DNA from: Escherichia phage FL18 | DNA length: 64,000 nt | Reading direction: 5' to 3' (one strand) | Sequence record: PP400780 | Part shown: piece after piece, positions 29,127-54,781 of the stretch | Numbering within the stretch: the first letter of the stretch is position 1 | Layout: each line of letters begins with the position of its first letter | Translations under genes and position numbers: made by a program | The notes under the pieces: model-generated | What the model was told of the DNA's origin: nothing | Databases searched by the model: none | What the model saw: the letters and a program-made list of their open reading frames with translations, nothing else

Positions 29127-29131
29127 TAAAA

Positions 29132-29155
29132 AGGAGACTTCGGTCTCCTTTCGGG
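29132..29155 (+). terminator. intrinsic terminator-like hairpin
   Basis: GGAGAC-TTCG-GTCTCC followed by TTTCGGGGTTT. Confidence 0.5.
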
Positions 29156-29156
29156 G

Positions 29157-29185
29157 TTTACATCTTCCTCTAGGCATGATATGAT
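29157..29185 (+). promoter_or_regulatory. T4-type early promoter
   Basis: TTTACA then 17 nt then TGATATGAT. Confidence 0.5.
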
Positions 29186-29214
29186 GTACTTACACAAACC
29201 AAGAGGAAAACATT

Positions 29215-29589
29215 ATGAATATGTCTCAAGCAATTTTTACTGCAATCACCGAAAACACAACTGTTGAAGTAGTTTCTCCGCTGGCAACCTACGTTATTCT
29301 TGCTCCTAAAACTATTGTATCTCGTATGGAAAACATGGGCAAACGTATCGTACAAATTGTTGGAGCTGGAAATCAAAAACTTGATTATCTACGAACCATC
29401 AAAGCTTATGAACATTTCCAACTCGAAAAAGGTTCTCCTATCCAGGTAGAACTCGTAAATGGTGATATCGTTCGAGCAATGTTCCATCATTTCTATGCAT
29501 TGAATGACCCATCTAAAGCGGTTCGTTTAATTGCATATGACGCAAACCAAAACGAAATCAACGCAGATGTATCTAAATTACGTTTTTAA
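29215..29589 (+). CDS. hypothetical protein (124 aa)
   Basis: ORF with AAGAGGAAAA RBS downstream of early promoter. Confidence 0.55.
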   Translation: MNMSQAIFTAITENTTVEVVSPLATYVILAPKTIVSRMENMGKRIVQIVGAGNQKLDYLRTIKAYEHFQLEKGSPIQVELVNGDIVRAMFHHFYALNDPSKAVRLIAYDANQNEINADVSKLRF

Positions 29590-29590
29590 G

Positions 29591-29619
29591 TTTACTTCTC
29601 CGGTAGTTGTGTTATTATA
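29591..29619 (+). promoter_or_regulatory. T4-type early promoter
   Basis: TTTACT then about 17 nt then TGTTATTAT. Confidence 0.45.
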
Positions 29620-29644
29620 GATCTATCAACTACTGGAGAACAAA

Positions 29645-29962
29645 ATGAAAACCATCGATTGTAAAGCAGAATTTAAGATTTTTTATCATGGTTCAAGTAG
29701 TTCAGCTAACATCGAAAACATGCTTTGTCCTCCTGAAGAAACAGGAGTTCTGTCTGAAACTGGACGTAAGAAAAACTTGGATCGTGTATTCTTTACTGAA
29801 GATATCGGTTTAGCAAAGATTTATGCAGGACGAGCAGCACGCTCTTATGGAGGTGAACCACGTCTCTATCGAGTAATTTCTCCGGTAGATGTAGTTCAAA
29901 TGAATGATACTAAAGGTGCTACAGTTTATCACGCTGAATGGGCATTTTGCGAGGAAATATGA
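29645..29962 (+). CDS. small protein with H-Y-E ADP-ribosyltransferase-like motifs (tentative)
   Basis: 105 aa; FYHGSSSSANIENM (H-G-S), VFFTEDIGLAKIYAG, YHAEWAF order resembles minimal PARP/DT-type ART core. Confidence 0.5.
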   Translation: MKTIDCKAEFKIFYHGSSSSANIENMLCPPEETGVLSETGRKKNLDRVFFTEDIGLAKIYAGRAARSYGGEPRLYRVISPVDVVQMNDTKGATVYHAEWAFCEEI

Positions 29963-30150
29963 GCAAATTAACTAAAGTTACTTTTATCGGTTGGTTTAAA
30001 AGCGGTGAGATGTTCACTAAAGATATCATGTTATCAGGTGATCGCGAAGAAATCGAGTGGGTTACGGTACAACTTGCTGAAGTGAACAATGCATTAGTTA
30101 AAGCATTTATTAATGACGAGAAAGTTTTTGAAGCTGATTTCAGAGGATAA
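29959..30150 (+). CDS. dmd: Dmd-like antitoxin (inhibitor of RnlA/LsoA)
   Basis: 63 aa; VTFIGWFKSGEMFTKDI...LAEVNNALVKAFINDEKV resembles T4 Dmd (61.5) as recalled. Confidence 0.65.
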   Translation: MSKLTKVTFIGWFKSGEMFTKDIMLSGDREEIEWVTVQLAEVNNALVKAFINDEKVFEADFRG

Positions 30151-30151
30151 T

Positions 30152-30364
30152 ATGTATTCAACTGTGTTTAAACCATCAGCATACGAATTTGCATCAACTA
30201 CACAATGGAAAGCTCTTATTCTGGAAGGATGGGAACTAATGATGGACTGTGAAGCATCTGAAAAGTTTCCACACGGCAAAGTGGACTTCGTTAAATTTGC
30301 TGTGCGTCCGACTAAACGACAGATTCGTCAAGAAAAACGCAAATTTCGAAAAAGTTTAAAATAG
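30152..30364 (+). CDS. small basic protein with VRPTKRQIR...RKSLK tail (61.4-like position)
   Basis: 70 aa; C-terminal motif shared with ORF 2242..2412 and with gp49 C-terminus (RKSLK). Confidence 0.5.
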   Translation: MYSTVFKPSAYEFASTTQWKALILEGWELMMDCEASEKFPHGKVDFVKFAVRPTKRQIRQEKRKFRKSLK

Positions 30365-30366
30365 CT

Positions 30367-30395
30367 GTTTACAAGCACCACATACTGTGTTACTA
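30367..30395 (+). promoter_or_regulatory. T4-type early promoter
   Basis: TTTACA then 17 nt then TGTTACTAT. Confidence 0.45.
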
Positions 30396-30424
30396 TATTT
30401 CTATCAACTACAGAGGAAATTGAA

Positions 30425-30793
30425 ATGAAAAAATTAATCGCTTTAGCAATGGTGTTCGGATTAACTGGATGTGGTGCTCATGGCTTTATCCCTAATAACG
30501 TTGGCCAACTGATTTACAATCCGAATGTTAAACAGTACAACCAACCTAAAGTTGAAGTGGAAGACCCGGTTACTGTAGGTAATCGAATGATTCAAGCTGA
30601 TGCCCATGCTCAACGTTATCGTGATTCTGATACCGTAGCGTTGTCAAAAGAACAACGCGTTAAAGAACATTGCTTACAGGCTACTGAAATCGCATTCATT
30701 CGCTATGTTGAAACAACTGGTAAAGAGCCTACCCAGAAACAAATCGCGAATAACTACGTCCAGTGTATTGAACGTTTAAACAAATTTAATTAA
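30425..30793 (+). CDS. lipoprotein
   Basis: 122 aa; signal peptide with lipobox LTGC. Confidence 0.65.
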   Translation: MKKLIALAMVFGLTGCGAHGFIPNNVGQLIYNPNVKQYNQPKVEVEDPVTVGNRMIQADAHAQRYRDSDTVALSKEQRVKEHCLQATEIAFIRYVETTGKEPTQKQIANNYVQCIERLNKFN

Positions 30794-30797
30794 TTGG

Positions 30798-30826
30798 TTT
30801 ACGCAAAAGTTAAAACAAGATACTAT
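30798..30826 (+). promoter_or_regulatory. T4-type early promoter
   Basis: TTTACG then 17 nt then GATACTAT. Confidence 0.45.
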
Positions 30827-30854
30827 AAACATAACAAATCAAGAGGAAATTAAC

Positions 30855-31103
30855 ATGGAATTATTCGTAGCTAGTTCAGTAGCAGTTTTAATCGCAGGTA
30901 TTGGTTCAATCATCATTTACATGTTGCCTTGGGTAATCGCACTTATTCGTGGCACAAAAAGCACAACAGCAATCTTCTTTGTATCTTTACTCTTTAACTG
31001 GACGATGATTGGTTGGATTGGAACTTTAATTTGGTCTATCGTTGCCGAAAAGAAATCTGCTCAGCAGCCTCAACAAGTAATTATTATTCGCGAAAAAGAA
31101 TAA
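30855..31103 (+). CDS. imm: superinfection immunity protein Imm-family membrane protein
   Basis: 82 aa, two TM helices; YMLPWVIALIRG...NWTMIGWIGTLIWSI fits the Imm family signature as I recall it. Confidence 0.55.
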   Translation: MELFVASSVAVLIAGIGSIIIYMLPWVIALIRGTKSTTAIFFVSLLFNWTMIGWIGTLIWSIVAEKKSAQQPQQVIIIREKE

Positions 31104-31108
31104 ACTTG

Positions 31109-31137
31109 TTTACATTATAGATGGACTATGGTATAGT
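31109..31137 (+). promoter_or_regulatory. T4-type early promoter
   Basis: TTTACA then 17 nt then TGGTATAGT within GGACTA...TAGTCC inverted repeat. Confidence 0.45.
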
Positions 31138-31166
31138 AGTCCTATCAAATCAACTAAGGAGTTAAA

Positions 31167-31460
31167 ATGAAAAAGTTATCATTGGCAGCAATCTTACTTG
31201 CAGTATCATGTGCACCGGCTCCAGTTACGGCAGGTTATGATAAAGACCTCTGTGAGTGGTCAATGACTGCAAATCAAGAAGATGTTGAACAACAAATCTT
31301 CTCTGATATCATGAACATCACTAAACGAGACCGTCCTAATATGGTTAATAAAGTTGTTGAACAACTTAAGTCTGGCGGTATCATGCAGTACAACTATGTT
31401 TTGTATTGTGACCCTAATTTCGATAACAAAGATATCGTAACCGAAATCACAGGTGAATAA
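31167..31460 (+). CDS. sp: spackle periplasmic protein Sp
   Basis: 97 aa; signal peptide then GYDKDLCEWSMTA...GGIMQYNYVLYCD closely resembles T4 Sp (61.3) as recalled. Confidence 0.8.
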   Translation: MKKLSLAAILLAVSCAPAPVTAGYDKDLCEWSMTANQEDVEQQIFSDIMNITKRDRPNMVNKVVEQLKSGGIMQYNYVLYCDPNFDNKDIVTEITGE

Positions 31461-31461
31461 T

Positions 31462-32112: not shown

Positions 32113-32113
32113 A

Positions 32114-32311
32114 ATGACTACTGCAATTTGCACTGGTTCTAAAATTAGTGTTTTTACAAGTTTTGAAGATTATGAAGTTGTTTCAAAACACCAATGCCAT
32201 ATTAGCGTAAAAGCTAATGATGGTGTAATTTGGAATATTCCACACTATGAAGACACTACATATGAAGTCACAGATGCGAACGGTGATAAAGCGATCTTTG
32301 TGATTGATTAA
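32114..32311 (+). CDS. hypothetical protein (65 aa)
   Basis: ATG 1 nt after previous stop. Confidence 0.5.
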   Translation: MTTAICTGSKISVFTSFEDYEVVSKHQCHISVKANDGVIWNIPHYEDTTYEVTDANGDKAIFVID

Positions 32312-32330
32312 ATATACTCAGGAGGTACCT

Positions 32331-32798: not shown

Positions 32799-32837
32799 TA
32801 AGATGGCCTTATTAATTTAAGGCCTCTGGAGAATACT

Positions 32838-33860: not shown

Positions 33861-34054
33861 ACCAGACCTATAATAGCAAAGGCCAAATCAACTACAGTAT
33901 CCAATGGAACAGAAGGAACTATAATACCATGGGCAACTAACAATGGTGCAATCCCGAAGTTCCATGAAATAATGCCACCTACAACTATTGCAGCGATAGC
34001 AGTTTTCTTTTTATTGCCTTTAATAGCGTTGATTAACGATGGAAGTTTAAACAT
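33857..34054 (-). CDS. small membrane protein on opposite strand
   Basis: 65 aa, two hydrophobic segments; ATG preceded by AAGGAG at 5-nt spacing; in 61-56 intergenic space. Confidence 0.5.
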   Translation of the reverse strand: MFKLPSLINAIKGNKKKTAIAAIVVGGIISWNFGIAPLLVAHGIIVPSVPLDTVVDLAFAIIGLV

Positions 34055-34110: not shown

Positions 34111-34143
34111 TAACTCTCTTATACTGAATTGAAAGGAAAAATA

Positions 34144-34947: not shown

Positions 34948-34956
34948 ATAATTTAA

Positions 34957-34986
34957 GGAATCCTTCGGGATTCCTTTTTTTTTTTG
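34957..34986 (+). terminator. intrinsic terminator
   Basis: GGAATCC-TTCG-GGATTCC hairpin followed by T11. Confidence 0.65.
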
Positions 34987-34995
34987 TTTCTACAG

Positions 34996-35024
34996 TTTAC
35001 AACCACTAAAAACTGTGTTAAGAT
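34996..35024 (+). promoter_or_regulatory. T4-type early promoter
   Basis: TTTACA then 17 nt then TGTTAAGAT. Confidence 0.45.
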
Positions 35025-35052
35025 ATTTTTACTTACTCAAGAGGAGAACAAT

Positions 35053-35280
35053 ATGTTAAATCGTTGGATTAAACCTAATAACACATTAGGTGCTTTGATT
35101 GCTCAAGAAGTTTCGTTGAAATACGGTCTTGGATATTACGATGATGTGGTCGTACACTCATTCATGATGGATGGTGAAGACGTCAAATTTAATGCCGAAA
35201 TCCGTTGGGATGATGGTGGTGTTCGTTTTGTTCGAGGAACAATTAATGCTTACGATACTGAAGAAGTTGTTTGCTGTTAA
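35053..35280 (+). CDS. hypothetical protein (75 aa)
   Basis: ATG with GAGGAG RBS inside ORF 34984..35280. Confidence 0.5.
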   Translation: MLNRWIKPNNTLGALIAQEVSLKYGLGYYDDVVVHSFMMDGEDVKFNAEIRWDDGGVRFVRGTINAYDTEEVVCC

Positions 35281-36312: not shown

Positions 36313-36473
36313 AAGAGAAATTGAAAGAGAAATTCTTACTAGAAATCAAGGAAAAAGACTTTGAGACATGGTATCGAATGGTGAAAGGGTTGACATTGCT
36401 TTTTAAAACATCCTTATTCATGTTAGAACAACCTGGCCCTGATGGACCTTTAGTAGGAAAGCTTAAAAAGTAG
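36309..36473 (+). CDS. small hypothetical protein (54 aa)
   Basis: ATGA-coupled ORF. Confidence 0.3.
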   Translation: MKEKLKEKFLLEIKEKDFETWYRMVKGLTLLFKTSLFMLEQPGPDGPLVGKLKK

Positions 36474-36502
36474 TTTACATTCCCTCCTCTCGTGTTATGA
36501 TA
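36474..36502 (+). promoter_or_regulatory. T4-type early promoter
   Basis: TTTACA then 17 nt then TGTTATGAT. Confidence 0.45.
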
Positions 36503-36528
36503 GGCTTATCTTTAAATGGAGGACTATC

Positions 36529-37110
36529 ATGACATGTCAATCTGAACTTCAAGAACGCGAATACCTAACAAATCTGATTGATAGCAAATTCACCCGCCAA
36601 GAACAAAACATTCTCTGGGCTTGCACCGATTCTAAGGAAGACCCGGATTTCCACTATGAATTAGACCATCTTGTTCGTAAGCATATGACTTCTACAGTAC
36701 CAATAGAACTCTACCGTGGTGTAACTCCTGAAGAAGTAGAACGTCTTTCCCTTCTTTCTGTTGGATGTCATTGGTCTCCTGGACGAGTAACATCGTTCAC
36801 AACTGATTTCAGTACAGCTCGTCAATTCTCTGGGAGTTGGGAATATCAGACGTACACTATTCTTAGTCTCAGGAATGCTCCATTCATTTTTGATTACTAC
36901 CAAAACATGATTAACATTGTACTTGCCGGAAAGAACCCTAAGCATGTTATGGAAGAAAAGCGTGTTGACGTCCTAGATATGATTGAATCTGAACAAGAGT
37001 ATATGGTCTCAGGTATCTCTAGATTTGAGATTGTGGAAATTGAAGACTTAGAATATGACCCTTTATCTCGATTATACAAAATCATTCATTTGAAAATGTT
37101 GAATTTTTAG
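36529..37110 (+). CDS. modB: ADP-ribosyltransferase, ModB-like (R-S-E class)
   Basis: 193 aa; LYRGV (Arg), FTTDFSTA (STS-like), EQEYMV (ExE); paralog of next gene; position as in T4. Confidence 0.65.
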   Translation: MTCQSELQEREYLTNLIDSKFTRQEQNILWACTDSKEDPDFHYELDHLVRKHMTSTVPIELYRGVTPEEVERLSLLSVGCHWSPGRVTSFTTDFSTARQFSGSWEYQTYTILSLRNAPFIFDYYQNMINIVLAGKNPKHVMEEKRVDVLDMIESEQEYMVSGISRFEIVEIEDLEYDPLSRLYKIIHLKMLNF

Positions 37111-37140
37111 TGTACAAACTCTACCGACGATGATACTATA
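37110..37140 (+). promoter_or_regulatory. T4-type early promoter
   Basis: TGTACA then about 18 nt then TGATACTAT. Confidence 0.4.
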
Positions 37141-37167
37141 CTTTTATCAACCAGAGGAGAAACCTAA

Positions 37168-37776
37168 ATGTTTATGCCATATAACGAGTGTGAAATTGAA
37201 GAAATGGTTCGTCGTGCTCAAAACCCCGAATATCAAGATGTATTGCAGTACGAAATTGATAGTCAATTCAGCGACATTGAACAAAGTGTACTGTGGCAGT
37301 GTATGGAAAACAAGCCAGACAGCATCCAACAAGATTTAAGTGCAATTGTTCGTAGAAATTGGTCGTCTTCTGTTCCTGAGACAATGTATCGTGGAATCTC
37401 TAAGAAAACTATGGCCACACTCGATGATAAAGGCATTGGTAGTATTATTAAATTTGACAGAGTAATGAGCTTCAGCCCAGTGTTCGGTGTAGCACGTAAC
37501 TTTGCTTCGTATAATTTTTACGGAACATTTAATATGTTCTGCATCAAAGATGCACCATTTGCTTTCAACTTCCGTGAACATATGCTTAACATGATTCTGG
37601 CTGCGCCATCTTGTGAGTTCAATGGAGCTTTCCCTGAAGCGACAAGACGGTCTAATGCTAGACTTATATCTGACGAATGTGAATTTATGCTCCCTATAGG
37701 GACTACACTGCGTGTAGATTCTATTATTCAAGATGGACGTTATACAATCTGGAATCTGTCTATTGTCAGTTACTGA
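37168..37776 (+). CDS. modA: ADP-ribosyltransferase, ModA-like (R-S-E class)
   Basis: 202 aa; MYRGI, MSFSPVFG, DECEFML motifs; paralog of previous gene. Confidence 0.65.
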   Translation: MFMPYNECEIEEMVRRAQNPEYQDVLQYEIDSQFSDIEQSVLWQCMENKPDSIQQDLSAIVRRNWSSSVPETMYRGISKKTMATLDDKGIGSIIKFDRVMSFSPVFGVARNFASYNFYGTFNMFCIKDAPFAFNFREHMLNMILAAPSCEFNGAFPEATRRSNARLISDECEFMLPIGTTLRVDSIIQDGRYTIWNLSIVSY

Positions 37777-37851
37777 CTGAATTGGAATAACCGGATGGAA
37801 CTCAGAACCATTATAACACATAAAAAATTAAAGCATTTTATGAAAAAAGAG

Positions 37852-37879
37852 TGTACACTACCTGAGGGCATGATATTAT
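37852..37879 (+). promoter_or_regulatory. T4-type early promoter
   Basis: TGTACA then about 16 nt then TGATATTAT. Confidence 0.4.
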
Positions 37880-37929
37880 AAAGCTTATCAGCTAAATGAC
37901 CTAACGTCCGTAAGACAGAGGAAAATATT

Positions 37930-38676
37930 ATGTTATCAAATAATAAAATTAACAAAATCAATCGTCGTCTTGACCACACCAGAGCTTCTGCGAAGAGACG
38001 CTCTAAGGATTTTAACTTAGACTTTAATTACCTTAAAAACATTCTTGATCAAAAGGTCTGCGCTTACTCAGGTGAATCTTTTAATAACTCTGTTGAAGGT
38101 GAGAAATTATCCTTAGAACGTTTTAATAATGATATAGGCTACATTAAAGGTAATGTTATTCCGGTTAAGAAAAAATATAACACGGCTCGTTCTGATTTAA
38201 CATTAGAAGAACTTATTGAGAAACGTGATGCCATTGCAAGACGTATCGCTAATCCTTCTGTCCGTAAAGTAGAGAAACTTAATCTCGACGAGAAGAAATG
38301 GGCCCAAATTAAAAAGGTTTATGATACTATTTTAAAAATCCGGGCAAAACGTGAAAATCGTGTTAAGCATATGGCGAACATGATGAAAAATCAACCTTTA
38401 TCTAACGAATCTAAACTTAGAATTGTTGCTTTGAAAGCACGCATTAATGGCTCACATCAAGCAGAAGGCCATGAACTTACTAAACTCAACGTTCTTCTTA
38501 AAGGCTCTGACTGGAAAACTAAAACTAAATTAACTGACGCTGAATCGCTTTTCGATACATATGATAAAGTTATCCAAGGTCTGCAACGTTTTGAAAAGAT
38601 TAGTTTCATTGGTAAATTAAAATTGAAACGTGGCTTACCACTTAGCGCATCATTATTCCAACTGATTAAAGGTTAA
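37930..38676 (+). CDS. Srd-like protein (by synteny); N-terminal HNH_3-like motif
   Basis: 248 aa between modA and dda; CAYSGESF...SLERFNNDIGYIKGNV resembles HNH_3 signature. Confidence 0.45.
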   Translation: MLSNNKINKINRRLDHTRASAKRRSKDFNLDFNYLKNILDQKVCAYSGESFNNSVEGEKLSLERFNNDIGYIKGNVIPVKKKYNTARSDLTLEELIEKRDAIARRIANPSVRKVEKLNLDEKKWAQIKKVYDTILKIRAKRENRVKHMANMMKNQPLSNESKLRIVALKARINGSHQAEGHELTKLNVLLKGSDWKTKTKLTDAESLFDTYDKVIQGLQRFEKISFIGKLKLKRGLPLSASLFQLIKG

Positions 38677-40987: not shown

Positions 40988-40993
40988 AATCAG

Positions 40994-41022
40994 TTTACAA
41001 CCAAGGACGGTTGGAGTATAAT
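40994..41022 (+). promoter_or_regulatory. T4-type early promoter
   Basis: TTTACA then 17 nt then TATAAT. Confidence 0.45.
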
Positions 41023-41053
41023 CTTTCTATCTTAACCAAACAGGAAAAACATT

Positions 41054-41548
41054 ATGAATATCAATACTACGGCTACTTACATCCTGAAAGACGAAAAACA
41101 AATTAACTGGTATGGTGCTTCAGTGCGAGCTTATGAAAAGTTTTGTGAAATTTTAGGTGCCACTCAAGGTAATAGTTTCACTATTGTTAACTTCATCAAA
41201 CAAGCTGAAGGCCCTTGGTTATTCTTAGAAATTAAAAATTCATATGGTACAATTTCTACTACCGCCCTTCCAAGCACCGACTTTGAACTGTTGATTGAAG
41301 AAGTAGAACCCGTTAAAGATATCTGTATTGATATGGATATCGCTTGTATGTACGGTACTCTGATTAAGCCTATTGAGCCTACTGATTTGTTGTGTAAAGC
41401 TGTTTCAATTCGACGTCCGTTCGCAGGTCCAGTAAATGGATGGGTGACTGATCAGTGGATTGAAGACGGTGTTGAACTTCTGAACGTTGTTCATGCAGGT
41501 GATTTTAGTGTAGTTCCACGTAGTGCTGTGGTTAATATCCTTAATTAA
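41054..41548 (+). CDS. hypothetical protein, member of three-gene paralog family
   Basis: 164 aa; C-terminal WIEDGVELLNVVHAGDFSVVP shared with next two ORFs. Confidence 0.6.
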   Translation: MNINTTATYILKDEKQINWYGASVRAYEKFCEILGATQGNSFTIVNFIKQAEGPWLFLEIKNSYGTISTTALPSTDFELLIEEVEPVKDICIDMDIACMYGTLIKPIEPTDLLCKAVSIRRPFAGPVNGWVTDQWIEDGVELLNVVHAGDFSVVPRSAVVNILN

Positions 41549-41550: not shown

Positions 41551-41580
41551 TTGTACATCCAAGGATGGATGGAGTATAAT
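41551..41580 (+). promoter_or_regulatory. T4-type early promoter
   Basis: TTGTAC then about 18 nt then TATAAT. Confidence 0.4.
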
Positions 41581-41610
41581 GAATTCAACTTAAACAAAGA
41601 GAGAAAAATT

Positions 41611-42075
41611 ATGATTACTATTGGTGAAATTAAGCGTGTATCAACTGCATCCCGTTCTAAAGCCGCAGGTCGTCTGGTTGAAGTTGTCGGACTTCGCACA
41701 AATGGCATGGGACGTATTAAAGAAGTTAAAGTTCGAATCATTCCTAGTTTTGGACGTCAGGATACTCAGTACGCTTACGTAAGTCCTAAATTCTTGGAAA
41801 CTCGTGTAAGTGCCCACTTTGCTTCAAGCGATATCGTTGAGCCTACTACACAGTTCAAATGGGCCCTTTGCAAAGGTGTTGAATTCCAGACTGATAAAGA
41901 ATTTGACTTCATCGATGAATACGGTTATCCAAGCAAAACTGATACTATGTGTGGCTTTATTAGTGACCAATGGGTTGAAGATGGTGAAAAGTTATACAAT
42001 ATCGTATTCTTAGGTGACTTCCGAGTTGTTAAAGAATCTGAAATCACTCGCTATGTGTCTCCTCGTAAAGCTTAA
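41611..42075 (+). CDS. hypothetical protein, paralog family member
   Basis: 154 aa from internal ATG; SRSKAAGRLVEV and WVEDGEKLYNIVFLGDF motifs. Confidence 0.6.
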   Translation: MITIGEIKRVSTASRSKAAGRLVEVVGLRTNGMGRIKEVKVRIIPSFGRQDTQYAYVSPKFLETRVSAHFASSDIVEPTTQFKWALCKGVEFQTDKEFDFIDEYGYPSKTDTMCGFISDQWVEDGEKLYNIVFLGDFRVVKESEITRYVSPRKA

Positions 42076-42504: not shown

Positions 42505-42509
42505 AATTG

Positions 42510-42538
42510 TTTACTTCTCCTCTGGTTTTGATATTATA
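42510..42538 (+). promoter_or_regulatory. T4-type early promoter
   Basis: TTTACT then about 16 nt then TGATATTAT. Confidence 0.45.
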
Positions 42539-42563
42539 ACCATATCAACCAGAGGAGAATAAT

Positions 42564-43088
42564 ATGTTAGTTTACCGCGTAGAACGTAGTTTTTGTACTC
42601 AACGTGAATCATTACCAGGAATTGCTATCGAAGACGGTAAAGCCGTCAGAATTTGGGAAACCTCTTGGAATAAAGAACCTCGCTCGCCATACGGTTGGTC
42701 GGGTGCCGACAACTCTGAAGAAACATGGGAGTTCCTTGATAAACATGGAATAATCTCAGGTAACTTCTACCATCACGGCGACAACTATAATGTCCCTAAT
42801 CGTCCTACAGTAAATGAAGACAAACTCCTTGAACAAAATATCTTAAGATACTATAGAATTGAGCACGCATTTGAATTGAGTGAAGATTGGGCTCAAGGGT
42901 TCTATTTTGGATTTGAAAGTGTTGACGCGGTTTATGCATGGTTTGATGACCAGGTGGATGTTGAACTCTTGAAAGCTAAAGGATACTACATCGCGGTCTA
43001 TGAAGCACCTGATTTCATCCTCGGAAGTTGTCAATTAATGTTTAGACGTTCATTGGCAGAACAAGTTGATTTTATTTTGCTAAAATGA
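42564..43088 (+). CDS. hypothetical protein (174 aa)
   Basis: ORF with GAGGAGAA RBS. Confidence 0.6.
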   Translation: MLVYRVERSFCTQRESLPGIAIEDGKAVRIWETSWNKEPRSPYGWSGADNSEETWEFLDKHGIISGNFYHHGDNYNVPNRPTVNEDKLLEQNILRYYRIEHAFELSEDWAQGFYFGFESVDAVYAWFDDQVDVELLKAKGYYIAVYEAPDFILGSCQLMFRRSLAEQVDFILLK

Positions 43089-43118
43089 TGTACAACAACT
43101 ATGGTCTATGATACTATA
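43089..43118 (+). promoter_or_regulatory. T4-type early promoter
   Basis: TGTACA then about 18 nt then TGATACTAT within GTCTAT..ATAGAC inverted repeat. Confidence 0.45.
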
Positions 43119-43145
43119 GACCTATCAAAACAAGAGGAGAATATT

Positions 43146-43373
43146 ATGAAACGTCAAATCATTAAAAACGTAACTACTGATTCAAACATCGATGAGTTTG
43201 AAGATGTTCTGTTTAATCCTGATTTAGTTGTTGTACAGAAAAACTGGACCGAATTTTTATGCTACACCGAAGTGGTTTACGTTTACGAAAAACTCGGCGA
43301 TGAAATGCCTATCTATGGTATCTTCCGTGAAATCACTGAAAATGGTACAACTTATTGGAAGGAAACTTACTAA
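43146..43373 (+). CDS. hypothetical protein (75 aa)
   Basis: ATG with GAGGAG RBS. Confidence 0.5.
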
Positions 43374-43967: not shown

Positions 43968-44393
43968 ATGGCTTTTAAAGGTTTTGAAGTTGGTAAGAAA
44001 TATCGTATTATCAAAGGACAGGAAGATAATTTCTTGAGAATTCTTAATACGACTGGTAAACGTCTTAATACTAATCTGCATACTACTTTATTGTCCAAAG
44101 ATTTTATTGTGGAAGAGATGATTGGTTACGGTGTTTCGGTTATTGCTGTAGAAGCCGTAGGCGATTATGGCCGAACTATTCATAGTATGCAAGGTGATAT
44201 TCTGCTTTATGGTGCAGAATTTAAATTCTTTGAAGAAGTTCCGGAACCAGATACAGCTGTCGATTTCAAAAAAGGCTCTATAGAATTTGTTGATGGTTCG
44301 GTGATCGTATCAGGCGATGTGGTCATTACAGTTAAAAGTGAACAAGGGCGTTTGGCTGCAATCGATACACTTCAGAAAATTAAATTTAAATAA
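43968..44393 (+). CDS. hypothetical protein (39.x-like position)
   Basis: 141-aa ORF ending at terminator hairpin. Confidence 0.6.
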   Translation: MAFKGFEVGKKYRIIKGQEDNFLRILNTTGKRLNTNLHTTLLSKDFIVEEMIGYGVSVIAVEAVGDYGRTIHSMQGDILLYGAEFKFFEEVPEPDTAVDFKKGSIEFVDGSVIVSGDVVITVKSEQGRLAAIDTLQKIKFK

Positions 44394-44411
44394 GGGCTTC
44401 GGCCCTTTTTG
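44393..44411 (+). terminator. intrinsic terminator
   Basis: AGGGC-TTCG-GCCCT followed by TTTTT. Confidence 0.55.
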
Positions 44412-44456: not shown

Positions 44457-46274
44457 ATGATTAAAAATGAAATTAAGGTATTGACAGATGTAGAACATAT
44501 TAAGAAACGTAGTGGTATGTATATTGGTTCTTCGGCTAAAGAAGCACATGAGCGTTTTTTGTTTGGTAAATATCAACAAGTTGAATATGTTCCTGGTCTG
44601 GTTAAATTAATCGATGAGATTATTGACAACTCGGTTGATGAAGCTATTCGTACATCATTTAAGTTTGCAAATAAAATTGATGTGCAAATTAAAAATAATC
44701 AAGTTTCGGTGGAAGATAACGGACGTGGTATTCCTCAAGGTTTAGTTACTGACCAAACAGGTGAACAAATTCCTGGTCCTGTAGCGGCCTGGACTATTCC
44801 AAAGGCTGGTGGTAACTTTGGTGATGATTCTGAACGCAAGACTGGTGGTATGAACGGCGTCGGGAGTAGTTTAACTAATATCTTCTCTACGTTGTTTACA
44901 GGCATCACGTCAGATGGCGAAAACGAAATCACTGTTAACTGTTCAAACGGAATGGAAAACAAATCATGGTCTTCTAAGAAATCTAAAGGTAAAGGCACTA
45001 AAGTAATCTTCACTCCTGATTTCTCTTCATTTGAAGAACATAATTTATCTCAAATTTATTTAGATATTACTTTAGACCGACTTCAAACATTGGCAGTCGT
45101 TTATCCTGATATCAAGTTCACATTTAATGGTAAAAAGGTTGATGGTAATTTTAAACGATTTGCTAAACAATTTGGTGAAGATAACATCATTCAAGAAAAT
45201 GATAAAGTCTCTATAGCATTCACAACATCACCAGATGGCTTCCGTCATTTAACTTATGTGAATAACATCCATACTAAAAATGGTGGCCATCATGTTGAAT
45301 GCGTAATGGATGATATCTGCGAACATCTTTTGCCGGGTATTAAAAAGAAATATAAGGGTATTGAAGTCACTAAAGCTCGTGTTAAAGAATGCCTCACAAT
45401 GTTGATGTTTATTAGAGACATGAGCAACATGCGTTTTGATTCTCAGACTAAAGAACGTTTAACGTCAACGTATGGTGATATTCGTAATCATATCCAATTA
45501 GATGCTAAGAAAATTGCTCAGGCACTTCTTAAAAACGAAGCCTTGATTATGCCTATTGTTGAAGCAGCATTAGCTCGTAAATTGGCAGCAGAAAAGGCTG
45601 CAGAAACTAAAGCAGCTAAAAAGGCAACTAAAGCTAAGGTTCATAAGCATATTAAAGCTAACCAATGTGGTAAAGATGCAGATACGACATTGTTTTTAAC
45701 AGAAGGTGATTCGGCAATTGGTTATCTCATTGATGTTCGTGACCGTGAACTACACGGCGGATTCCCATTACGTGGTAAGGTGATGAATAGCTGGGGTATG
45801 TCATATGCTGATATGATGAAGAACAAAGAGCTCTTTGATATCTGTGCTATCACAGGTCTTATTCTTGGTGAAAAGGCAGAGAATACGAACTATCGTAATA
45901 TTGCAATTATGACCGATGCCGATCACGACGGTCTTGGAAGTATTTATCCTGCTTTGCTTGCTTTCTTTAGTAATTGGCCCGAATTGTTTGAACAAGGACG
46001 TATTCGCTTTGTTAAAACACCTGTAATTATTGCACAAATTGGCAAAACTCAAAAATGGTTTTATACTGTAGCTGAGTATGAAGAAGTTAAAGATACACTG
46101 CCTAAGCATAGTATTCGATACATCAAGGGATTAGGCTCCCTTGAAAAGTCAGAGTATCGTGAAATGATTCAGAACCCTGTGTACGACGTAGTTAAACTTC
46201 CTGAAAATTGGAAAGAACTCTTTGAAATGTTGTTGGGTGATGATTCAGAACTTCGTAAAGAATGGATGTCCTAA
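44457..46274 (+). CDS. 39: type II DNA topoisomerase large (ATPase/GyrB-like) subunit gp39, unsplit
   Basis: 605 aa continuous; GHKL motif IDEIIDNSVDEA, TOPRIM-like region; no separate gene 60 follows. Confidence 0.92.
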   Translation: MIKNEIKVLTDVEHIKKRSGMYIGSSAKEAHERFLFGKYQQVEYVPGLVKLIDEIIDNSVDEAIRTSFKFANKIDVQIKNNQVSVEDNGRGIPQGLVTDQTGEQIPGPVAAWTIPKAGGNFGDDSERKTGGMNGVGSSLTNIFSTLFTGITSDGENEITVNCSNGMENKSWSSKKSKGKGTKVIFTPDFSSFEEHNLSQIYLDITLDRLQTLAVVYPDIKFTFNGKKVDGNFKRFAKQFGEDNIIQENDKVSIAFTTSPDGFRHLTYVNNIHTKNGGHHVECVMDDICEHLLPGIKKKYKGIEVTKARVKECLTMLMFIRDMSNMRFDSQTKERLTSTYGDIRNHIQLDAKKIAQALLKNEALIMPIVEAALARKLAAEKAAETKAAKKATKAKVHKHIKANQCGKDADTTLFLTEGDSAIGYLIDVRDRELHGGFPLRGKVMNSWGMSYADMMKNKELFDICAITGLILGEKAENTNYRNIAIMTDADHDGLGSIYPALLAFFSNWPELFEQGRIRFVKTPVIIAQIGKTQKWFYTVAEYEEVKDTLPKHSIRYIKGLGSLEKSEYREMIQNPVYDVVKLPENWKELFEMLLGDDSELRKEWMS

Positions 46275-46299
46275 GCTCCTTCGGGAGCTTCATTTTAAT
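46274..46299 (+). terminator. intrinsic terminator-like hairpin
   Basis: AGCTCC-TTCG-GGAGCT followed by T-rich tract. Confidence 0.5.
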
Positions 46300-47417: not shown

Positions 47418-47509
47418 ATCCTGAATAGCCTGAGGCACTATTACACATAAGATGATAGATTATATGGTCTTTAGTAATAGTGCCCTAGGAATCTACTGAA
47501 GAGAATATT

Positions 47510-49170: not shown

Positions 49171-49183
49171 TTTCATAAAAATG

Positions 49184-49212
49184 TTTACAACTAAGTAGGA
49201 CTATGATATAGT
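49184..49212 (+). promoter_or_regulatory. T4-type early promoter
   Basis: TTTACA then 17 nt then TGATATAGT within GGACTA..TAGTCC inverted repeat. Confidence 0.45.
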
Positions 49213-49238
49213 AGTCCTATCTAAAAGAGGATAACATC

Positions 49239-49502
49239 ATGAAATTTAAATTTTTCTACGCAAAACATAAAGTGACCGGTGAGTTTGTTTCAATGTACAA
49301 CACTGTAGATGACGAAGGGATGATTTATACTCATTTAAGTCTATCTCATTGGGACTCAGACGTGCCTTATATGTCATCTGAAGCCGAAATAACTCGTTTA
49401 GTTAATGGACATATGAACGACCATTTTGGTGTTATTCTTTCTAAAGACCTTAAAGAGGTTATCAACAAAGGATATATGGAACTCGCGGAAGTTGAGATAT
49501 GA
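49239..49502 (+). CDS. hypothetical protein (87 aa)
   Basis: ORF with AAGAGGA RBS. Confidence 0.55.
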   Translation: MKFKFFYAKHKVTGEFVSMYNTVDDEGMIYTHLSLSHWDSDVPYMSSEAEITRLVNGHMNDHFGVILSKDLKEVINKGYMELAEVEI

Positions 49503-49695
49503 GCTCTAAAATGTGGATAGGAATATGGTTGCTTAGTATCCCAATGATTTGTATAATATTTTCAATTGTGTTGAGGTACTTATGAAAAATGCACTTCTTA
49601 TTGTACTAAGAACAATTTGTGATGCGTGGTTTTACATTGCATGTTCGTTCACTGGAACATGGTTGGCTTTAACATATTTTAATGTAATTTAATTG

Positions 49696-49725
49696 TTTAC
49701 ATCAAGGTAGGATTATGGTATAGTA
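49696..49725 (+). promoter_or_regulatory. T4-type early promoter
   Basis: TTTACA then about 18 nt then TGGTATAGT. Confidence 0.45.
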
Positions 49726-49752
49726 GTCCTATCAAATCAAGAGGAAAACAAA

Positions 49753-49953
49753 ATGGCTAAGCTTTTTAAAGATGTTGAAATTGGTGAAAAATTTGTCCTG
49801 AATAATGGTCAGCAGCTTATTCGTGTAGCTTCTATAGCCGGACAAACTCATAACTGTATCGCCCCAACGTGTTGGGCCCGATTCTTTATTGAGGATGACA
49901 CCGAATGTTTAACTGTTGAAGAGCTTTTTGAACGTTCTGATATGGCCGAATAA
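49753..49953 (+). CDS. hypothetical protein (66 aa)
   Basis: ORF with AAGAGGAAAA RBS. Confidence 0.5.
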   Translation: MAKLFKDVEIGEKFVLNNGQQLIRVASIAGQTHNCIAPTCWARFFIEDDTECLTVEELFERSDMAE

Positions 49954-49955
49954 AA

Positions 49956-49985
49956 TTGTACAAACTCTTGAGAGCAGAGTATAAT
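49956..49985 (+). promoter_or_regulatory. T4-type early promoter
   Basis: TTGTAC then about 18 nt then TATAAT. Confidence 0.45.
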
Positions 49986-50029
49986 GCTCTCATGGATTAC
50001 AAAAACATTAATCAATTGAGGAAATTAGC

Positions 50030-50476
50030 ATGACCAAATATTTAACTCGTAAAGACCTTCTGGCAGTTGGCGGTGAAGTTGTTGCAGTAGTTCGTAATGG
50101 CGAATACGGTTCTGAAGTTTCTAAAGAGTTTCGTTCTCGTGAAGGTTTTTACTTCTTCGTTAAAGGTTCATCTGATTGGCGACAAGTAGCAGCACGATTC
50201 TTTGTAGGACGTCAACGTTCTAAACAAGGGTTGGATGCAATTCTTTCTCATATTCGTCAAGGCCGTTCGCAACTAGCCCGTACCATGGGCACTAACAATA
50301 TTGAATATGATGTAATCTTTGTTTCAGCTAAGAACATGAAACCTCTGACTACTGGTTATGGTAAAGGTCAATTGGCTCTGGCGTTCACTCGCAATCATTC
50401 ATCAGAATATCAAACACTCACTGAAATGAACCGTCTTCTGGCAGATAATTTCAAATTCATTCTGCAGAGTTACTAA
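50030..50476 (+). CDS. ndd: nucleoid disruption protein Ndd
   Basis: 148 aa; [31 protein letters not shown]...[22 protein letters not shown] matches T4 Ndd as recalled. Confidence 0.85.
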
Positions 50477-50815: not shown

Positions 50816-50819
50816 AAAT

Positions 50820-52145: not shown

Positions 52146-52221
52146 GTGCCCTAGCCTTAGGATTTCTCAGTGCAATAGCTGCACTAGTGATTTGGCTATA
52201 TTGGTTGGACAAACATGATTA

Positions 52222-52245
52222 GGGAGCTTCGGCTCCCTTTGTGCA
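52222..52245 (+). terminator. intrinsic terminator
   Basis: GGGAGC-TTCG-GCTCCC followed by T-rich tract. Confidence 0.55.
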
Positions 52246-52262
52246 TTTTCCTCACAAAACAG

Positions 52263-52290
52263 TTTACACGTGCTTCAAACATGATATTAT
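52263..52290 (+). promoter_or_regulatory. T4-type early promoter upstream of motA
   Basis: TTTACA then about 16 nt then TGATATTAT. Confidence 0.5.
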
Positions 52291-52329
52291 AGACCTATCA
52301 AAACAAAACAACCAAATTGGAGAAATAAA

Positions 52330-52962
52330 ATGTCTAAAGTTACTTACATCATCAAAGCTTCTGAAAACGTTCTGAATGAAAAAACTGCTGCAATAATGGT
52401 TTATATCATTAAGAACAACTTCACAACTGCTGCCAATGTCCGTGAAGCTCTGGAAGCAGAATACAATGCATCAGTTGTTAACTCTAACATTGGTGTATTG
52501 ATTAAGAAAGGTTTAGTCGAAAAATCTGGTGATGGACTTGTAGCAACAGGCGAAGCAATGGATATTATCCAAAAAGCTGCAGACCTATTTGCTCAAGAAA
52601 ATGCTCCAGAACTTCTTCAGAAACGTAACACCAGAAAAGCACGTGGAGTTACTCCTGAAATGCATGAACTAGCAAACTTTGTTTTTGAAAATATTAAAGA
52701 TAAAGTTGAAGTTAAAGAAATTGGTGAAAACCGTAGTAACTTGGAAGTTCGATTTGCAAAACGAGTTCTAGGTATTCGTCAGATCGAAATTCGTCGAGAT
52801 GGCGCTCTTAGAATCTTTGCATACAACATGTCAGAAACTGAATCAAAGCTGTTTACTTCTCTTGAAAATGATGTTAAGATTAAGATCGGTGGTAAATATA
52901 CCTACATTGACTTCCCTAATGTGTCCAAAGAAATCATTACCCTTGTAACTAACGTACTGTGA
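52330..52962 (+). CDS. motA: middle-transcription activator MotA
   Basis: 210 aa; N-terminal MSKVTYIIKAS and NSNIGVLIKKGLVEKSGDGL match T4 MotA as recalled; C-half more divergent. Confidence 0.85.
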   Translation: MSKVTYIIKASENVLNEKTAAIMVYIIKNNFTTAANVREALEAEYNASVVNSNIGVLIKKGLVEKSGDGLVATGEAMDIIQKAADLFAQENAPELLQKRNTRKARGVTPEMHELANFVFENIKDKVEVKEIGENRSNLEVRFAKRVLGIRQIEIRRDGALRIFAYNMSETESKLFTSLENDVKIKIGGKYTYIDFPNVSKEIITLVTNVL

Positions 52963-52972
52963 GGAATACATA

Positions 52973-53302
52973 ATGAATAAGCTGAATATTATTAACGAAC
53001 TTCGTAAATGTGCAGAACCTACTCAGGAAGGATGGGATATTTGGTACCACGGGGCTTATTTAGGGACAATTGTAAAGATTAAAGCAGGCCAATATACGGT
53101 TATTCGTGAAAATAATGACGCGCCATTTGGCCTTCGTAAAAACTACATGGCAGCGATCAGTTCATTTGTTGATGCAGCTTACGAAATCTATAAAGAAGAT
53201 TATAAAGAATATCAGCAGTCACAACCGGTTATTCGTTCGATTGGTGTAAATAAACAAGCACAAAAATCTATTTGGCAACGTATTAAGGAATGGTTTAAAT
53301 GA
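52973..53302 (+). CDS. hypothetical protein (109 aa)
   Basis: ORF between motA and asiA. Confidence 0.55.
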
Positions 53303-53760
53303 AAACTTTTAAAGAACGTTTAGCTCTGTTAGATAAAGCTTTGTCGCGTGAGACTCCGGAAAGTCTGGCTGCTAAATTAGCTTCTTACGGTGGTGAATAT
53401 ACAGAACAAAATGTTTTAGACGAAGTTCCTGAAATCTGTTGGCAGACTGTGTATTGGGATGAAAACCAAAAGTATCAACGACGAATTGTCTGTGCAGCCA
53501 ACCGTTTTAAATTAAAAGATGGACGAACTCTTGTTATTCCAGGTGCTCGTCATTATTCTAAAGATATGGCAGAAGTTTTAGATGTAGTTAAACCTCAATT
53601 AGTTACTCAGCAAGTTTGTGATGATGACCAAGGGTTTATTGATCAATATAGTAATTATTGGACACGTGAAGAAGCAATGATTATTGCAACTTACGCTGGA
53701 CAAGTACGTATTGAACGTGGTGGTAATGAAAAAGAACTTTACTCTGAGGACCTTTACTAA
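53299..53760 (+). CDS. hypothetical protein (153 aa)
   Basis: ATGA-coupled ORF. Confidence 0.6.
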
Positions 53761-54056
53761 TGAATATTAAAAAGTTTCAAATTGATGGAATTACGAATCA
53801 AATTAAGGCATTGGAATATGCTAACAAAATGATGTCAACTAATTGGGGAATTTATACCAATGAGCCGGGATTTAAGTTCTGCGATATGGAATTCGCCAAA
53901 AAGCTTGTAGGAAAAGATTATGTATGTCCATTTAGTTCTCCAGTAAATGGAATGCTAAAACCTGCTTTACGCGATCTTTATATTGCGATGAACGAAGAAA
54001 TGATAAAAGAGTTAAAACGTCAACTGAAGGTGATTCAATTTGGCCAGGGAAATTAA
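53760..54056 (+). CDS. hypothetical protein (98 aa)
   Basis: ORF overlapping previous stop. Confidence 0.55.
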   Translation: MNIKKFQIDGITNQIKALEYANKMMSTNWGIYTNEPGFKFCDMEFAKKLVGKDYVCPFSSPVNGMLKPALRDLYIAMNEEMIKELKRQLKVIQFGQGN

Positions 54057-54258
54057 TTCAAAATCTGATTATTTTAATTCTCTCAATGATAAAGATAAAA
54101 ATCTAATAAGGCATTTTATTGTTGAGATGGGATATACGGATACACACGATTTAAGAGAACATATATTTGAATGTGGTGTAGCTAAAAAGTTTTCATTCAC
54201 ATGCAAATGTTTGAGAGAGGTAATTCAGCACTATGAACAATTTAGTCGCAAAACATAA
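54040..54258 (+). CDS. hypothetical protein; start uncertain
   Basis: Track start is TTG; first in-frame ATG would give only 43 aa. Confidence 0.3.
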   Translation: MAREINSKSDYFNSLNDKDKNLIRHFIVEMGYTDTHDLREHIFECGVAKKFSFTCKCLREVIQHYEQFSRKT

Positions 54259-54341
54259 TTTTAATAAAGCTTCTGTTCATAAAGATAAGAAGAAAGCGTT
54301 TAAAGAATCTAATCGCAAACAGAAACATAAGGGGAAGGTCT

Positions 54342-54620
54342 ATGATTATTGATTCTCAGTCCGTGGTTCAATACACAATCAAAATTGATATTCTAGAAAA
54401 GCTATATAAGTTTCTACCAAATTTATACCACTCAATTGTCAGTGAATTAGTTGAAGAACTGCATCTTGAGAATAATGATTTCTTGATTGGAACTTATAAA
54501 GACCTCTCAAAAGCAGGATATTTTTACGTAATTCCAGCTCCAGGAAAAAGTATCGATGATGTATTAAAAACTATAATGATTTATGTCCATGATTACGAAA
54601 TTGAAGATTATTTCGAATGA
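54342..54620 (+). CDS. hypothetical protein (92 aa)
   Basis: ATG with AAGGGGAAGG RBS. Confidence 0.55.
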   Translation: MIIDSQSVVQYTIKIDILEKLYKFLPNLYHSIVSELVEELHLENNDFLIGTYKDLSKAGYFYVIPAPGKSIDDVLKTIMIYVHDYEIEDYFE

Positions 54621-54721
54621 GTCATAATCTTGAAAAGGTAATCGAGCATAATGTAGCTCAGGAACGTGAGTCGTTCAAAGAATTCGTAGAAAAAATTTTT
54701 GAAGAAAATAACACAGACCAG

Positions 54722-54750
54722 TTTACAAATCAAGCGTCTGATGATATTAT
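54722..54750 (+). promoter_or_regulatory. T4-type early promoter upstream of asiA
   Basis: TTTACA then 17 nt then TGATATTAT; second TGGTATAGT at about 54771. Confidence 0.45.
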
Positions 54751-54781
54751 AACAAAGTCAACTAATTGAGTGGTATAGTTA

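Follow-up and report, generated by a model that had tools for sequence, protein, structure and literature searches.

Why should the early promoters of a T4-type phage lie inside inverted repeats, and what do these repeats do? The question is raised by positions 29130-54780 of a 64,000-nucleotide stretch of Escherichia phage FL18 (record PP400780; the whole stretch is the window below). An original prediction had described there repeated terminator-plus-promoter cassettes with the -10 element embedded in a palindrome, had likened them to the promoter-early-stem-loop (PeSL) cassettes proposed to mediate gene shuffling in T4-type genomes, and had marked two gene intervals as recombination hotspots. 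The window belongs to a Mosigvirus (RB69-type) coliphage: a search with bases 29100-54000 gave about 160 phage records of 95-99% identity, the top matches (97.5%) being Mosigvirus coliphages such as vB_Eco_mar005P1, ST0 and moha. In this genome we recognise 18 PeSL-type early-promoter cassettes, whose embedded stems probably insulate read-through RNA, translational masking included.

Read literally, with 15-19 nt before TGn, the consensus proposed originally, GTTTACA, about 17 nt, TGnTAT(A/G)(A/G)T, has no match in the window. If the gap is instead counted from hexamer to hexamer, the strict form GTTTACA-N12-16-TGNTATRRT (17 nt between hexamers) occurs six times in the window against 0.01 expected, five of them in the region, and the looser GTTTAC-N17-18-TAHDRT has 18 matches (0.82 expected), every one on the plus strand, of which 14 fall in the region, one (52851) within motA. 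The -35 is a TGTACA variant, (G/T/A)TGTACA, at five more intergenic sites (37110, 37851, 41551, 43088 and 49956), and the GTTTAC and TGTACA types together make up 18 intergenic cassettes between 29156 and 54782. The predicted number of at least 18 sites is therefore right as a count of intergenic cassettes, but it is reached only with a degenerate -10 (TATGAT, TATTAT, TACTAT, TATAGT, TAAGAT, TATAAT), since the strict consensus fits five. A generic sigma70 scan showed no enrichment (63 found, 65 expected), so that the T4-type consensus alone is informative. The match inside the motA coding sequence (52851-52880, GTTTACT...TGTTAAGAT) is a full early-promoter consensus match and is kept in ST0 and mar005P1, and may be either accidental or an internal promoter that serves arn.4.

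All the cassettes follow one plan. An AT-rich, UP-like stretch (75% A+T in the 25 nt 5' of the -35, vs 63% in the regional background, the exceptions being cassettes directly behind a terminator) is followed by a -35 of GTTTAC(A/T) or TGTACA, a spacer of 16-17 nt and an extended -10 of the form TGn-TAnnnT, TGn being present in 14 of the 18. The start region from -3 to +5 is conserved as C(C/T)T-A-TCAA (of 17 tabulated cassettes, 15 carry the A at the predicted +1), and a Shine-Dalgarno (SD) sequence, GAGG-type in every cassette, and an ATG lie 20-45 nt 3' of the predicted start. The recurrent leader CAACTAC(T/A)G(A/G)AGG is common to unrelated genes and phages; it is the 3' arm of SD-masking stems in some cassettes and is unpaired in others. 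From the consensus and the family we infer that host sigma70 RNA polymerase should fire the cassettes immediately after infection.

The cassettes are the following, with the stems found in them (free energy and fold z-score):

29156..29217, plus strand: orfA cassette; -35 GTTTACA, TGA-TATGAT (29180-29185), predicted start about 29192, ATG 29215; spacer TTCCTCT (29165-29171) pairs with the SD AGAGGAA (29202-29208), -10.1 kcal/mol, z -2.4
29590..29647, plus strand: orfB cassette; -35 GTTTACT, -10 TATTAT (29613-29618); 14-bp stem, 29596-29609 with 29627-29640, burying the SD TGGAGAA, -19.9 kcal/mol, z -5.1, duplex -16.1
30367..30427, plus strand: imm.1 cassette; GTTTACA, TGT-TACTAT; without significant embedded stem
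30797..30857, plus strand: imm cassette; GTTTACG, TACTAT; without stem
31108..31169, plus strand: sp cassette; GTTTACA, TGG-TATAGT; GGACTA (31123-31128) with TAGTCC (31137-31142), extended -10 in the loop, -11.5 kcal/mol, z -2.8
34995..35055, plus strand: mrh.2 cassette; GTTTACA, TGT-TAAGAT, ATG 35053; without embedded stem
36473..36531, plus strand: modB cassette; GTTTACA, TGT-TATGAT (36496-36501); -10 region (36492-36503) with the SD-AUG region (36524-36533), -17.4 kcal/mol, z -5.4, duplex -14.5
37110..37170, plus strand: modA cassette; GTGTACA, TGA-TACTAT; weak pairing only
37851..37932, plus strand: srd cassette; GTGTACA, TGA-TATTAT; long leader, no specific stem, z about -0.4 to -1.5
40993..41056, plus strand: motB.1 cassette; GTTTACA, TATAAT; small stem AACC/GGTT entirely in the spacer
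41551..41613, plus strand: motB cassette; TTGTACA, TATAAT (41575-41580), ATG 41611
42509..42566, plus strand: motB.2 cassette; GTTTACT, TGA-TATTAT; 13-bp stem, 42515-42527 with 42547-42559, burying the SD (AGAGGAGAA), -23.9 kcal/mol, z -7.1, duplex -19.0
43088..43148, plus strand: cef cassette; ATGTACA, TGA-TACTAT; GGTCTAT (43103-43109) with ATAGACC (43116-43122), -10 in loop and stem, -9.5 kcal/mol, z -3.6
49183..49241, plus strand: orfJ cassette; GTTTACA, TGA-TATAGT; TAGGACTA (49196-49203) with TAGTCCTA (49212-49219), -13.2 kcal/mol, z -3.9
49695..49755, plus strand: ndd.1 cassette; GTTTACA, TGG-TATAGT; TAGGATTA (49708-49715) with TAGTCCTA (49724-49731), -13.7 kcal/mol, z -6.6
49956..50032, plus strand: ndd cassette; TTGTACA, TATAAT; TGAGAGCA (49969-49976) with TGCTCTCA (49985-49992), -13.9 kcal/mol, z -3.5
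52262..52338, plus strand: motA cassette; GTTTACA, TGA-TATTAT, ATG 52330; without embedded stem
54721..54784, plus strand: asiA cassette; GTTTACA, TGA-TATTAT; without stem, at the right edge of a replacement of about 1 kb relative to close relatives

Eight stems enclose the -10, one has it in the 5' arm, two small ones lie in the spacer, three cassettes have a terminator upstream and about five of the 18 have none of these; the fold z-scores of the window hairpins range from -2.4 to -7.1. The palindromes predicted around the -10 were recovered at 31123-31142, 49196-49219, 49708-49731, 43103-43122 and 49969-49992 (z -2.8 to -6.6), at coordinates 2-3 nt away from those first given for the repeats, and the extended identity claimed for them was found in part. 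A 31-nt repeat is found intact at 31123 and with a single mismatch at 49710, but at 49197 only some 24 nt from its start are shared; a 30-nt repeat is exact at 43104, but the site placed at 52281 shares only the 3' 19 nt (TATAGACCTATCAAAACAA) and lacks the left arm, so that it is not a palindrome. Longer inverted repeats at 29596-29640, 42515-42559, 29165-29208 and 36492-36533 were absent from the earlier account. The motB.1 (40993-41022) and motB (41551-41580) promoters are paralogous cassettes (CCAAGGAYGGWTGGAGTATAAT), and the small stem of each is confined to the spacer, as in the PeSL subclass published as 'between the boxes'.

Three stem types could be told apart. In the free-standing type (A; 31108, 43088, 49183, 49695 and 49956), folding from -35 to ATG gives 6-11 bp around a loop that holds the extended -10, the 5' arm lying in the spacer and the 3' arm starting at the last base of the -10. 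In the second (B; 29590, 42509 and, weakly, 29156) the spacer is complementary to the leader plus SD, and in the third (C; modB, 36473) the -10 and a few following bases pair with the SD-AUG region. In all three the 5' arm is upstream of the cassette's own predicted start, so that by geometry the hairpin can form only in transcripts that enter from an upstream promoter; the leaders made from the cassettes' own promoters are essentially unstructured (0 to -1.4 kcal/mol, and -4.0 for the long srd leader). No Rfam family was found for these hairpins.

Two further inverted repeats of similar layout were noticed in the window. A perfect 11-bp repeat, GGCACTATTAC...GTAATAGTGCC, lies 5' of rIIA.1 (47434-47484; -25.2 kcal/mol, z -6.4) and its 29-nt loop holds a -10-like TAGATTATAT; a GTTTAC -35 is absent, as is a clear MotA box. 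The repeat may be the middle-mode equivalent of the embedded-stem design. Outside the region, at 7638-7715, ATAGATCT...AGATCTAT flanks TGATATAAT, with a like arrangement of the -10 in the loop, 3' of GTTTACT and TGCTTTA (MotA-box-like) motifs and directly 5' of an SD.

The identification of the sites as T4-type early promoters within PeSL cassettes is supported by the published definitions (PMC2839356, PMC4122927). A PeSL consists of an AT-rich region, a sigma70-like promoter and a stem-loop, followed by SD and ATG (Arbiol et al. 2010, PMC2839356); five stem-loop positions were given there, the commonest being between the boxes and overlapping the -10, and G-T pairs were marked. In the cassettes described here the boxes are sigma70-like and 16-18 nt apart, the upstream stretch is AT-rich, the stem-loop stands within or beside the promoter, and SD and start codon form the 3' end of the unit. 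The location of the -10 within an inverted repeat is thus an already published PeSL property. Parts and order are identical, and the units are likewise intergenic and ahead of small, often variable early open reading frames (ORFs). The published examples differ in coming from RB49/phi1, with GGGG...CCCC stems and a TTGACA -35, and from T4/PST and KVP40/nt-1, to which PeSLs were later extended (T4/PST consensus TTTACW-N17-TAYWAT; Comeau et al. 2014, PMC4122927), none being RB69-type; the embedded stems of the window, unlike those, are AT-rich and without a U-tract, and a subset pairs with SD/AUG. The PeSL papers contain no discussion of such pairing, and the word 'translation' is absent from PMC2839356. 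As for the promoters themselves, RB69 was predicted to have 57 early promoters (Nolan et al. 2006, PMC1524935), and those of T4 and RB69 (PMC1524935; Hinton 2010, PMC2988021) resemble ours in the GTTTAC -35, the TGn -10, the A-rich UP-like region, the preference for C at -3 to -1 and the location upstream of early genes and novel ORFs; these papers cover the promoter alone, the words hairpin, stem-loop and inverted repeat being absent from PMC1524935.

What the stems have in common was sought by comparison. One rule for promoter plus SD/ATG, applied to the window and to the homologous early regions of eight other phages (T4, a Gaprivervirus, Marfavirus, Kanagawavirus, Jiaodavirus, unclassified Tevenvirinae, Karamvirus and Slopekvirus), gave 83 predicted promoters, those of T4 being likewise predictions, as the T4 GenBank record is without promoter features. 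Fold z-scores, ungapped inverted-repeat scores and register covariation were used, counts of minimum-free-energy pairs enclosing the -10 being too noisy; shuffles preserved mononucleotide composition in our own scripts and dinucleotide composition for the fold z-scores of the window. The stem designs recur in all nine lineages: the T4 dmd promoter reads GACAAGACTA-TGGTATAG-TAGTCTTGTC and that of T4 motB GGGACCA-GAGTATAA-TGGTCCC, while the T4 motB.2 promoter masks its own SD and the -10 of T4 modB pairs with the AUG. An ungapped inverted repeat around the -10 with a score of at least 8 is found in 21.7% of the 83 promoters vs 0.8% of shuffles, a 27-fold enrichment. When the promoters are aligned on the -10, the pairs of the register (-16-k with -7+k) are complementary beyond column permutation at six of the eight steps k=1-8 (z 2.0-3.8, with 1.5 and 1.1 at k=4 and 7), and slid registers show no complementarity excess among the 83. 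In all free-standing examples the symmetry axis lies at about -11.5, a fixed position simply explained by the spacer and the discriminator being the sole freely variable positions in intergenic spaces of about 60 nt filled by promoter and SD.

Pairing is also maintained through sequence change. A cassette family with the frame ACAAACTC..G.....CAGAGTATAATG comprises the window's ndd and T4 motB, three cassettes in the Gaprivervirus and one in the Kanagawavirus, and its stems differ by compensatory changes (GAGAGC/GCTCTC, GGGACC/GGTCCC, GGGGCC/GGTCCC, GGGAGC/GTTCCC, GGGGTC/GACCCC, GAGGAC/GTCCTC); 97.9% of cells are paired vs 35-54% in slid controls, three pairs show two-sided change, and none of 500 shuffles attains the covariation score. 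The modB hairpin is conserved in six genera, with compensatory changes in four of 12 pairs, and each variant of the -10 has its counterpart at the start codon (TATGAT with ATCATG, CATAAT with ATTATG, TAGTAT with ACTAAC).

That the pairing concerns RNA is suggested by strand asymmetry. Interior stem mismatches comprise nine G·T vs one A·C (p=0.02), and the ndd.1 stem contains one U·G pair, possible only in sense RNA. The fold of the sense strand gains 2.4 kcal/mol over that of the antisense strand of the same segment, against a compositional baseline of 0.36 in shuffles (p=5e-6), and among strongly folding segments the sense is better in 43 and worse in 9. Strand symmetry would be expected of a palindrome or cruciform acting as DNA, so the target of selection appears to be the sense RNA. 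In addition, the untranscribed part of the promoter forms a duplex of -14 kcal/mol or lower with its own SD-AUG window in 18.1% of cognate vs 1.5% of non-cognate pairs, the window cassettes at this level being 42509, 29590 and 36473. In IMG/VR, a MotB-like protein led to 3 loci, and two DNA-pattern scans, the first with a mis-registered pattern, gave no match.

A mechanism consistent with these observations can be proposed. In about half of the cassettes the partner of the spacer (approximately -24 to -16) is the discriminator (-7 to +2) or else the leader plus SD, and the -10 comes to lie in the loop because the repeat is built from the variable parts of the promoter. Such stems would act as insulators on read-through RNA. 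At 29590, 42509 and 36473, and weakly at 29156, the predicted stem would bury the SD or AUG in that RNA, so that the gene would be translated mainly from its own promoter's transcript; at 31108, 43088, 49183, 49695 and 49956 the free-standing stem of 6-11 bp may attenuate read-through RNA or otherwise mark it. An attenuation role of the kind proposed for the latter was shown for the RB49/phi1 stem-loops (PMC2839356). We advance more tentatively, as a possibility somewhat short of an even chance, the broader proposal that the stems are a family-wide RNA device and not terminators or recombination signals, in which spacer and discriminator are selected for sense-RNA pairing, read-through RNA is masked or disabled cassette by cassette, and cassette-led genes are expressed essentially from their own early promoter only.

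The closest precedent is that of T4 e, soc, 49 and I-TevI, whose initiation region is hidden in read-through RNA and whose promoter, located inside the hairpin, yields a translatable RNA (PMC3014915). Likewise, SD/AUG are predicted to be paired in read-through RNA at 29590, 42509, 36473 and, weakly, 29156, and the promoter stands inside the hairpin, so that by geometry and predicted +1 its own transcript is without the 5' arm. There, however, the internal promoter is late (gp55) or middle and delays expression, whereas here it is early and sigma70-type and would, as predicted, confine translation to the immediate-early window. The SD-masking cassettes work like this family and are not members of the described set. 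No description of the fixed register, the sense-strand bias or the masking of SD/AUG by early promoters was found in the literature, older print papers being outside the search, and the search found no global transcription start site or Term-seq map of T4-type phages.

Several points weigh against the insulation by stems as proposed. Nine of the 18 cassettes are without a significant promoter-spanning stem (two of these with only a 4-bp spacer stem), so that the stem is not obligatory, and the five free-standing stems are AT-rich, lack a U-tract and have just 6-11 bp (-9.5 to -13.9 kcal/mol). Promoter activity and all +1 positions are predictions. The p-values overstate independence, since the 83 promoters include orthologues and paralogues, and thresholds were set after viewing the data. 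Mean cognate and non-cognate duplex energies differ weakly (Mann-Whitney p=0.10), the signal being in the tail of the distribution. Finally, the complementary distribution of stems and terminators, a point in favour, varies with the definition of terminator: a strong embedded stem was found in none of eight terminator-preceded promoters vs 50 of 75 others (p=0.0004) with a strict definition of terminator, and in two of seven vs 48 of 76 (p=0.11) with a looser one, both definitions being post hoc.

It can also be the case that the embedded stems are transcription terminators or attenuators alone, each cassette starting a fresh transcript, an explanation that we consider unlikely, if the best of the alternatives. 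The canonical terminators of the region are of another kind. It holds six perfect UUCG hairpins, including these:

29130..29151, plus strand: UUCG terminator after gene 41, AAAGGAGACTTCGGTCTCCTTT; directly 5' of cassette 29156
34955..34976, plus strand: UUCG terminator after soc, T11 run; directly 5' of cassette 34995
44392..44407, plus strand: UUCG terminator before gene 39; no early promoter next
46273..46290, plus strand: UUCG terminator after gene 39; no early promoter next
52221..52238, plus strand: UUCG terminator after gene 52; 5' of cassette 52262

Only three of them (29130-29151, 34955-34976 and 52221-52238) directly precede a cassette, so that the statement that many cassettes are preceded by a UUCG terminator was too strong (three of 18). 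The terminator scan called those at 34955, 44392 and 46273, while those at 29130 and 52221, with shorter T runs, were uncalled and pass only a looser rule. These five are like intrinsic terminators in having a GC-rich stem, a UUCG loop and then T residues; the promoter-embedded stems, in contrast, have the -10 as loop and no tetraloop, in the window they lack a following U-tract throughout, and the plus-strand scan called none of them. Without a U-tract, the embedded stems of the window are not canonical terminators. Termination is favoured by the PeSL211/210 stem-loop, which cut lacZ expression as strongly as rrnB T1 (PMC2839356), although that assay cannot tell termination from translational or stability effects, and by the RB49-like Krischvirus L017, in which a GC-rich stem around TATAAT in the same register (14824) is followed by a U-tract, TTTTCTTTT. 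It is favoured too by the tendency of embedded stems and canonical terminators not to coincide; at 29130, 34955 and 52221 an upstream UUCG terminator seems to substitute for the embedded stem. The window stems, however, are AT-rich and of -9.5 to -13.9 kcal/mol, the strongest (29590, 42509 and 36473) end in SD/AUG, and the covarying pairing of -10 and start codon at modB is left unexplained by termination.

A second alternative is that the repeats are mainly recombination sites, the stems being targets of an ORF-shuffling machinery and the promoter-dense intervals hotspots. The gene names by which the original prediction designated these intervals, 41-61 and dexA-39, are correct by annotated relatives, in which the plus-strand order is 41, two ORFs, dmd, 61.4, imm.1, imm, sp, 61.2, 61.1, 61, 56, soc, mrh.2, then modB, modA, srd, dda, dexA, motB.1, motB, motB.2, cef, goF, 39, rIIA.1, rIIA, and towards the end denB, ndd.1, ndd, ac, 52, motA, arn, asiA. 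Two features lie by gene 61. A small ORF between genes 61 and 56 (33857-34054, minus strand) is the sole minus-strand gene of the early block and is annotated in every relative, including the T4-like KRT47 and more distant genera, and a stem-loop GGCCTTA-TTAAT-TTAAGGCC (32805-32830) stands directly 5' of the gene 61 SD in a spacer without an early promoter. A tally of the window against five close relatives gave about eight indel or replacement events:

48490-48498: 2.5-kb deletion in the window; 7-9 bp microhomology, no cassette link
34131 and 46263: homing-endonuclease insertions in relatives; no cassette link
36547-36986: internal modB deletion in two relatives; no cassette link
41831: small motB indel; no cassette link
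30140-30344: loss of 61.4 in phiC120; end 23 nt 5' of cassette 30367
53771-54778: replacement of about 1 kb; end just past cassette 54721
52261-52338: extra ORF in ST0 (gp121) with a copy of cassette 52262 on each side; clean cassette-to-cassette event

In the last of these, the motA cassette unit (78 bp) is duplicated in ST0 and its copies flank the extra ORF; the window joins the copy 1 leader to the copy 2 coding sequence, which places the crossover within the shared SD-ATGTCTAAA segment. The others arose otherwise: two homing-endonuclease insertions, three or four intragenic microhomology deletions and one replacement. The insertions concern empty sites at 34131-34137, where AV111 carries about 650 bp with a homing-endonuclease gene, and at 46263-46268, after gene 39, where AV111, phiC120 and an IMG/VR contig carry about 800 bp with such a gene. 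The 2.5-kb deletion begins near codon 259 of rIIA, takes in rIIB and ends in the small gene that follows, leaving a junction ORF (47723-48535); the sequence is present in all five relatives, and the isolate sequenced would seem to be an rII deletion mutant or some other variant with a deletion. Also in favour of this alternative are families that front different genes, the cassette of the T4 dmd promoter being found before sp, orfJ and ndd.1 in the window and that of T4 motB before ndd, the variability across five genera of nine of 15 cassette-led genes vs nine of 27 others, a trend that is not significant (estimated p about 0.1), and the reported PeSL mini-circles (PMC2839356). Cassette-mediated exchange happens, but the hotspot status of the named intervals is not borne out: one of about eight events is cassette-to-cassette, and two fall in these intervals, about what their length would give. 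Since, besides, the observed crossover requires homology only and not a stem, and covariation and strand asymmetry indicate an RNA function, recombination is improbable as the main role of the repeats. As dispersed repeats of 30-80 bp, the cassettes may also serve as occasional substrates of homologous recombination.

The palindromes might act as DNA, either as a cruciform or as an operator for a dimeric protein over the -10, tuning or shutting off the early promoters. The mechanism of T4 early-promoter shut-off has been described as unknown (PMC2988021, PMC3014915), and the constancy of the axis near -11.5 would agree with such a role, but it is explained by stems that use only the unconstrained promoter positions. 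The stem sequences are wholly different between cassettes, so that no common operator exists, and the excess of G·T over A·C mismatches (9 to 1) and the better folding of sense over antisense RNA, by 2 kcal/mol after correction for composition, make a role as DNA very improbable. Finally, that the repeats are functionless by-products of AT-rich composition or of recent cassette duplication can hardly be right, even though some stems are short (6 bp) and three window cassettes are near-identical to each other, given the enrichment over shuffles, the compensatory changes within cassette families and across six genera, and the retention of the feature in nine lineages.

Relative to published PeSL accounts, the fixed register, the covariation, the sense-strand bias and the masking of SD/AUG, in 83 predicted promoters of nine lineages, are new. 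The cassettes as recognised here aid the annotation of early transcription units in Mosigvirus genomes, and one further recombination event of the PeSL type is documented, in ST0. If the fixed register, the covariation and the sense bias are true, with about a fifth of the promoters masking their own SD/AUG, the dense early regions of T4-like phages would be insulated at the level of RNA and translation, cassette by cassette. This would offer a route into the confinement of early expression to the first minutes of infection, and another into the question of why early promoters keep conserved information beyond the polymerase contacts. Should the stems be an RNA device, co-evolution would be expected between the -10 hexamer and the start-codon region, as at modB, and translation of the cassette-led genes, many of which have host-takeover functions (modB, motB.2, ndd), would go off once the early promoters shut down.

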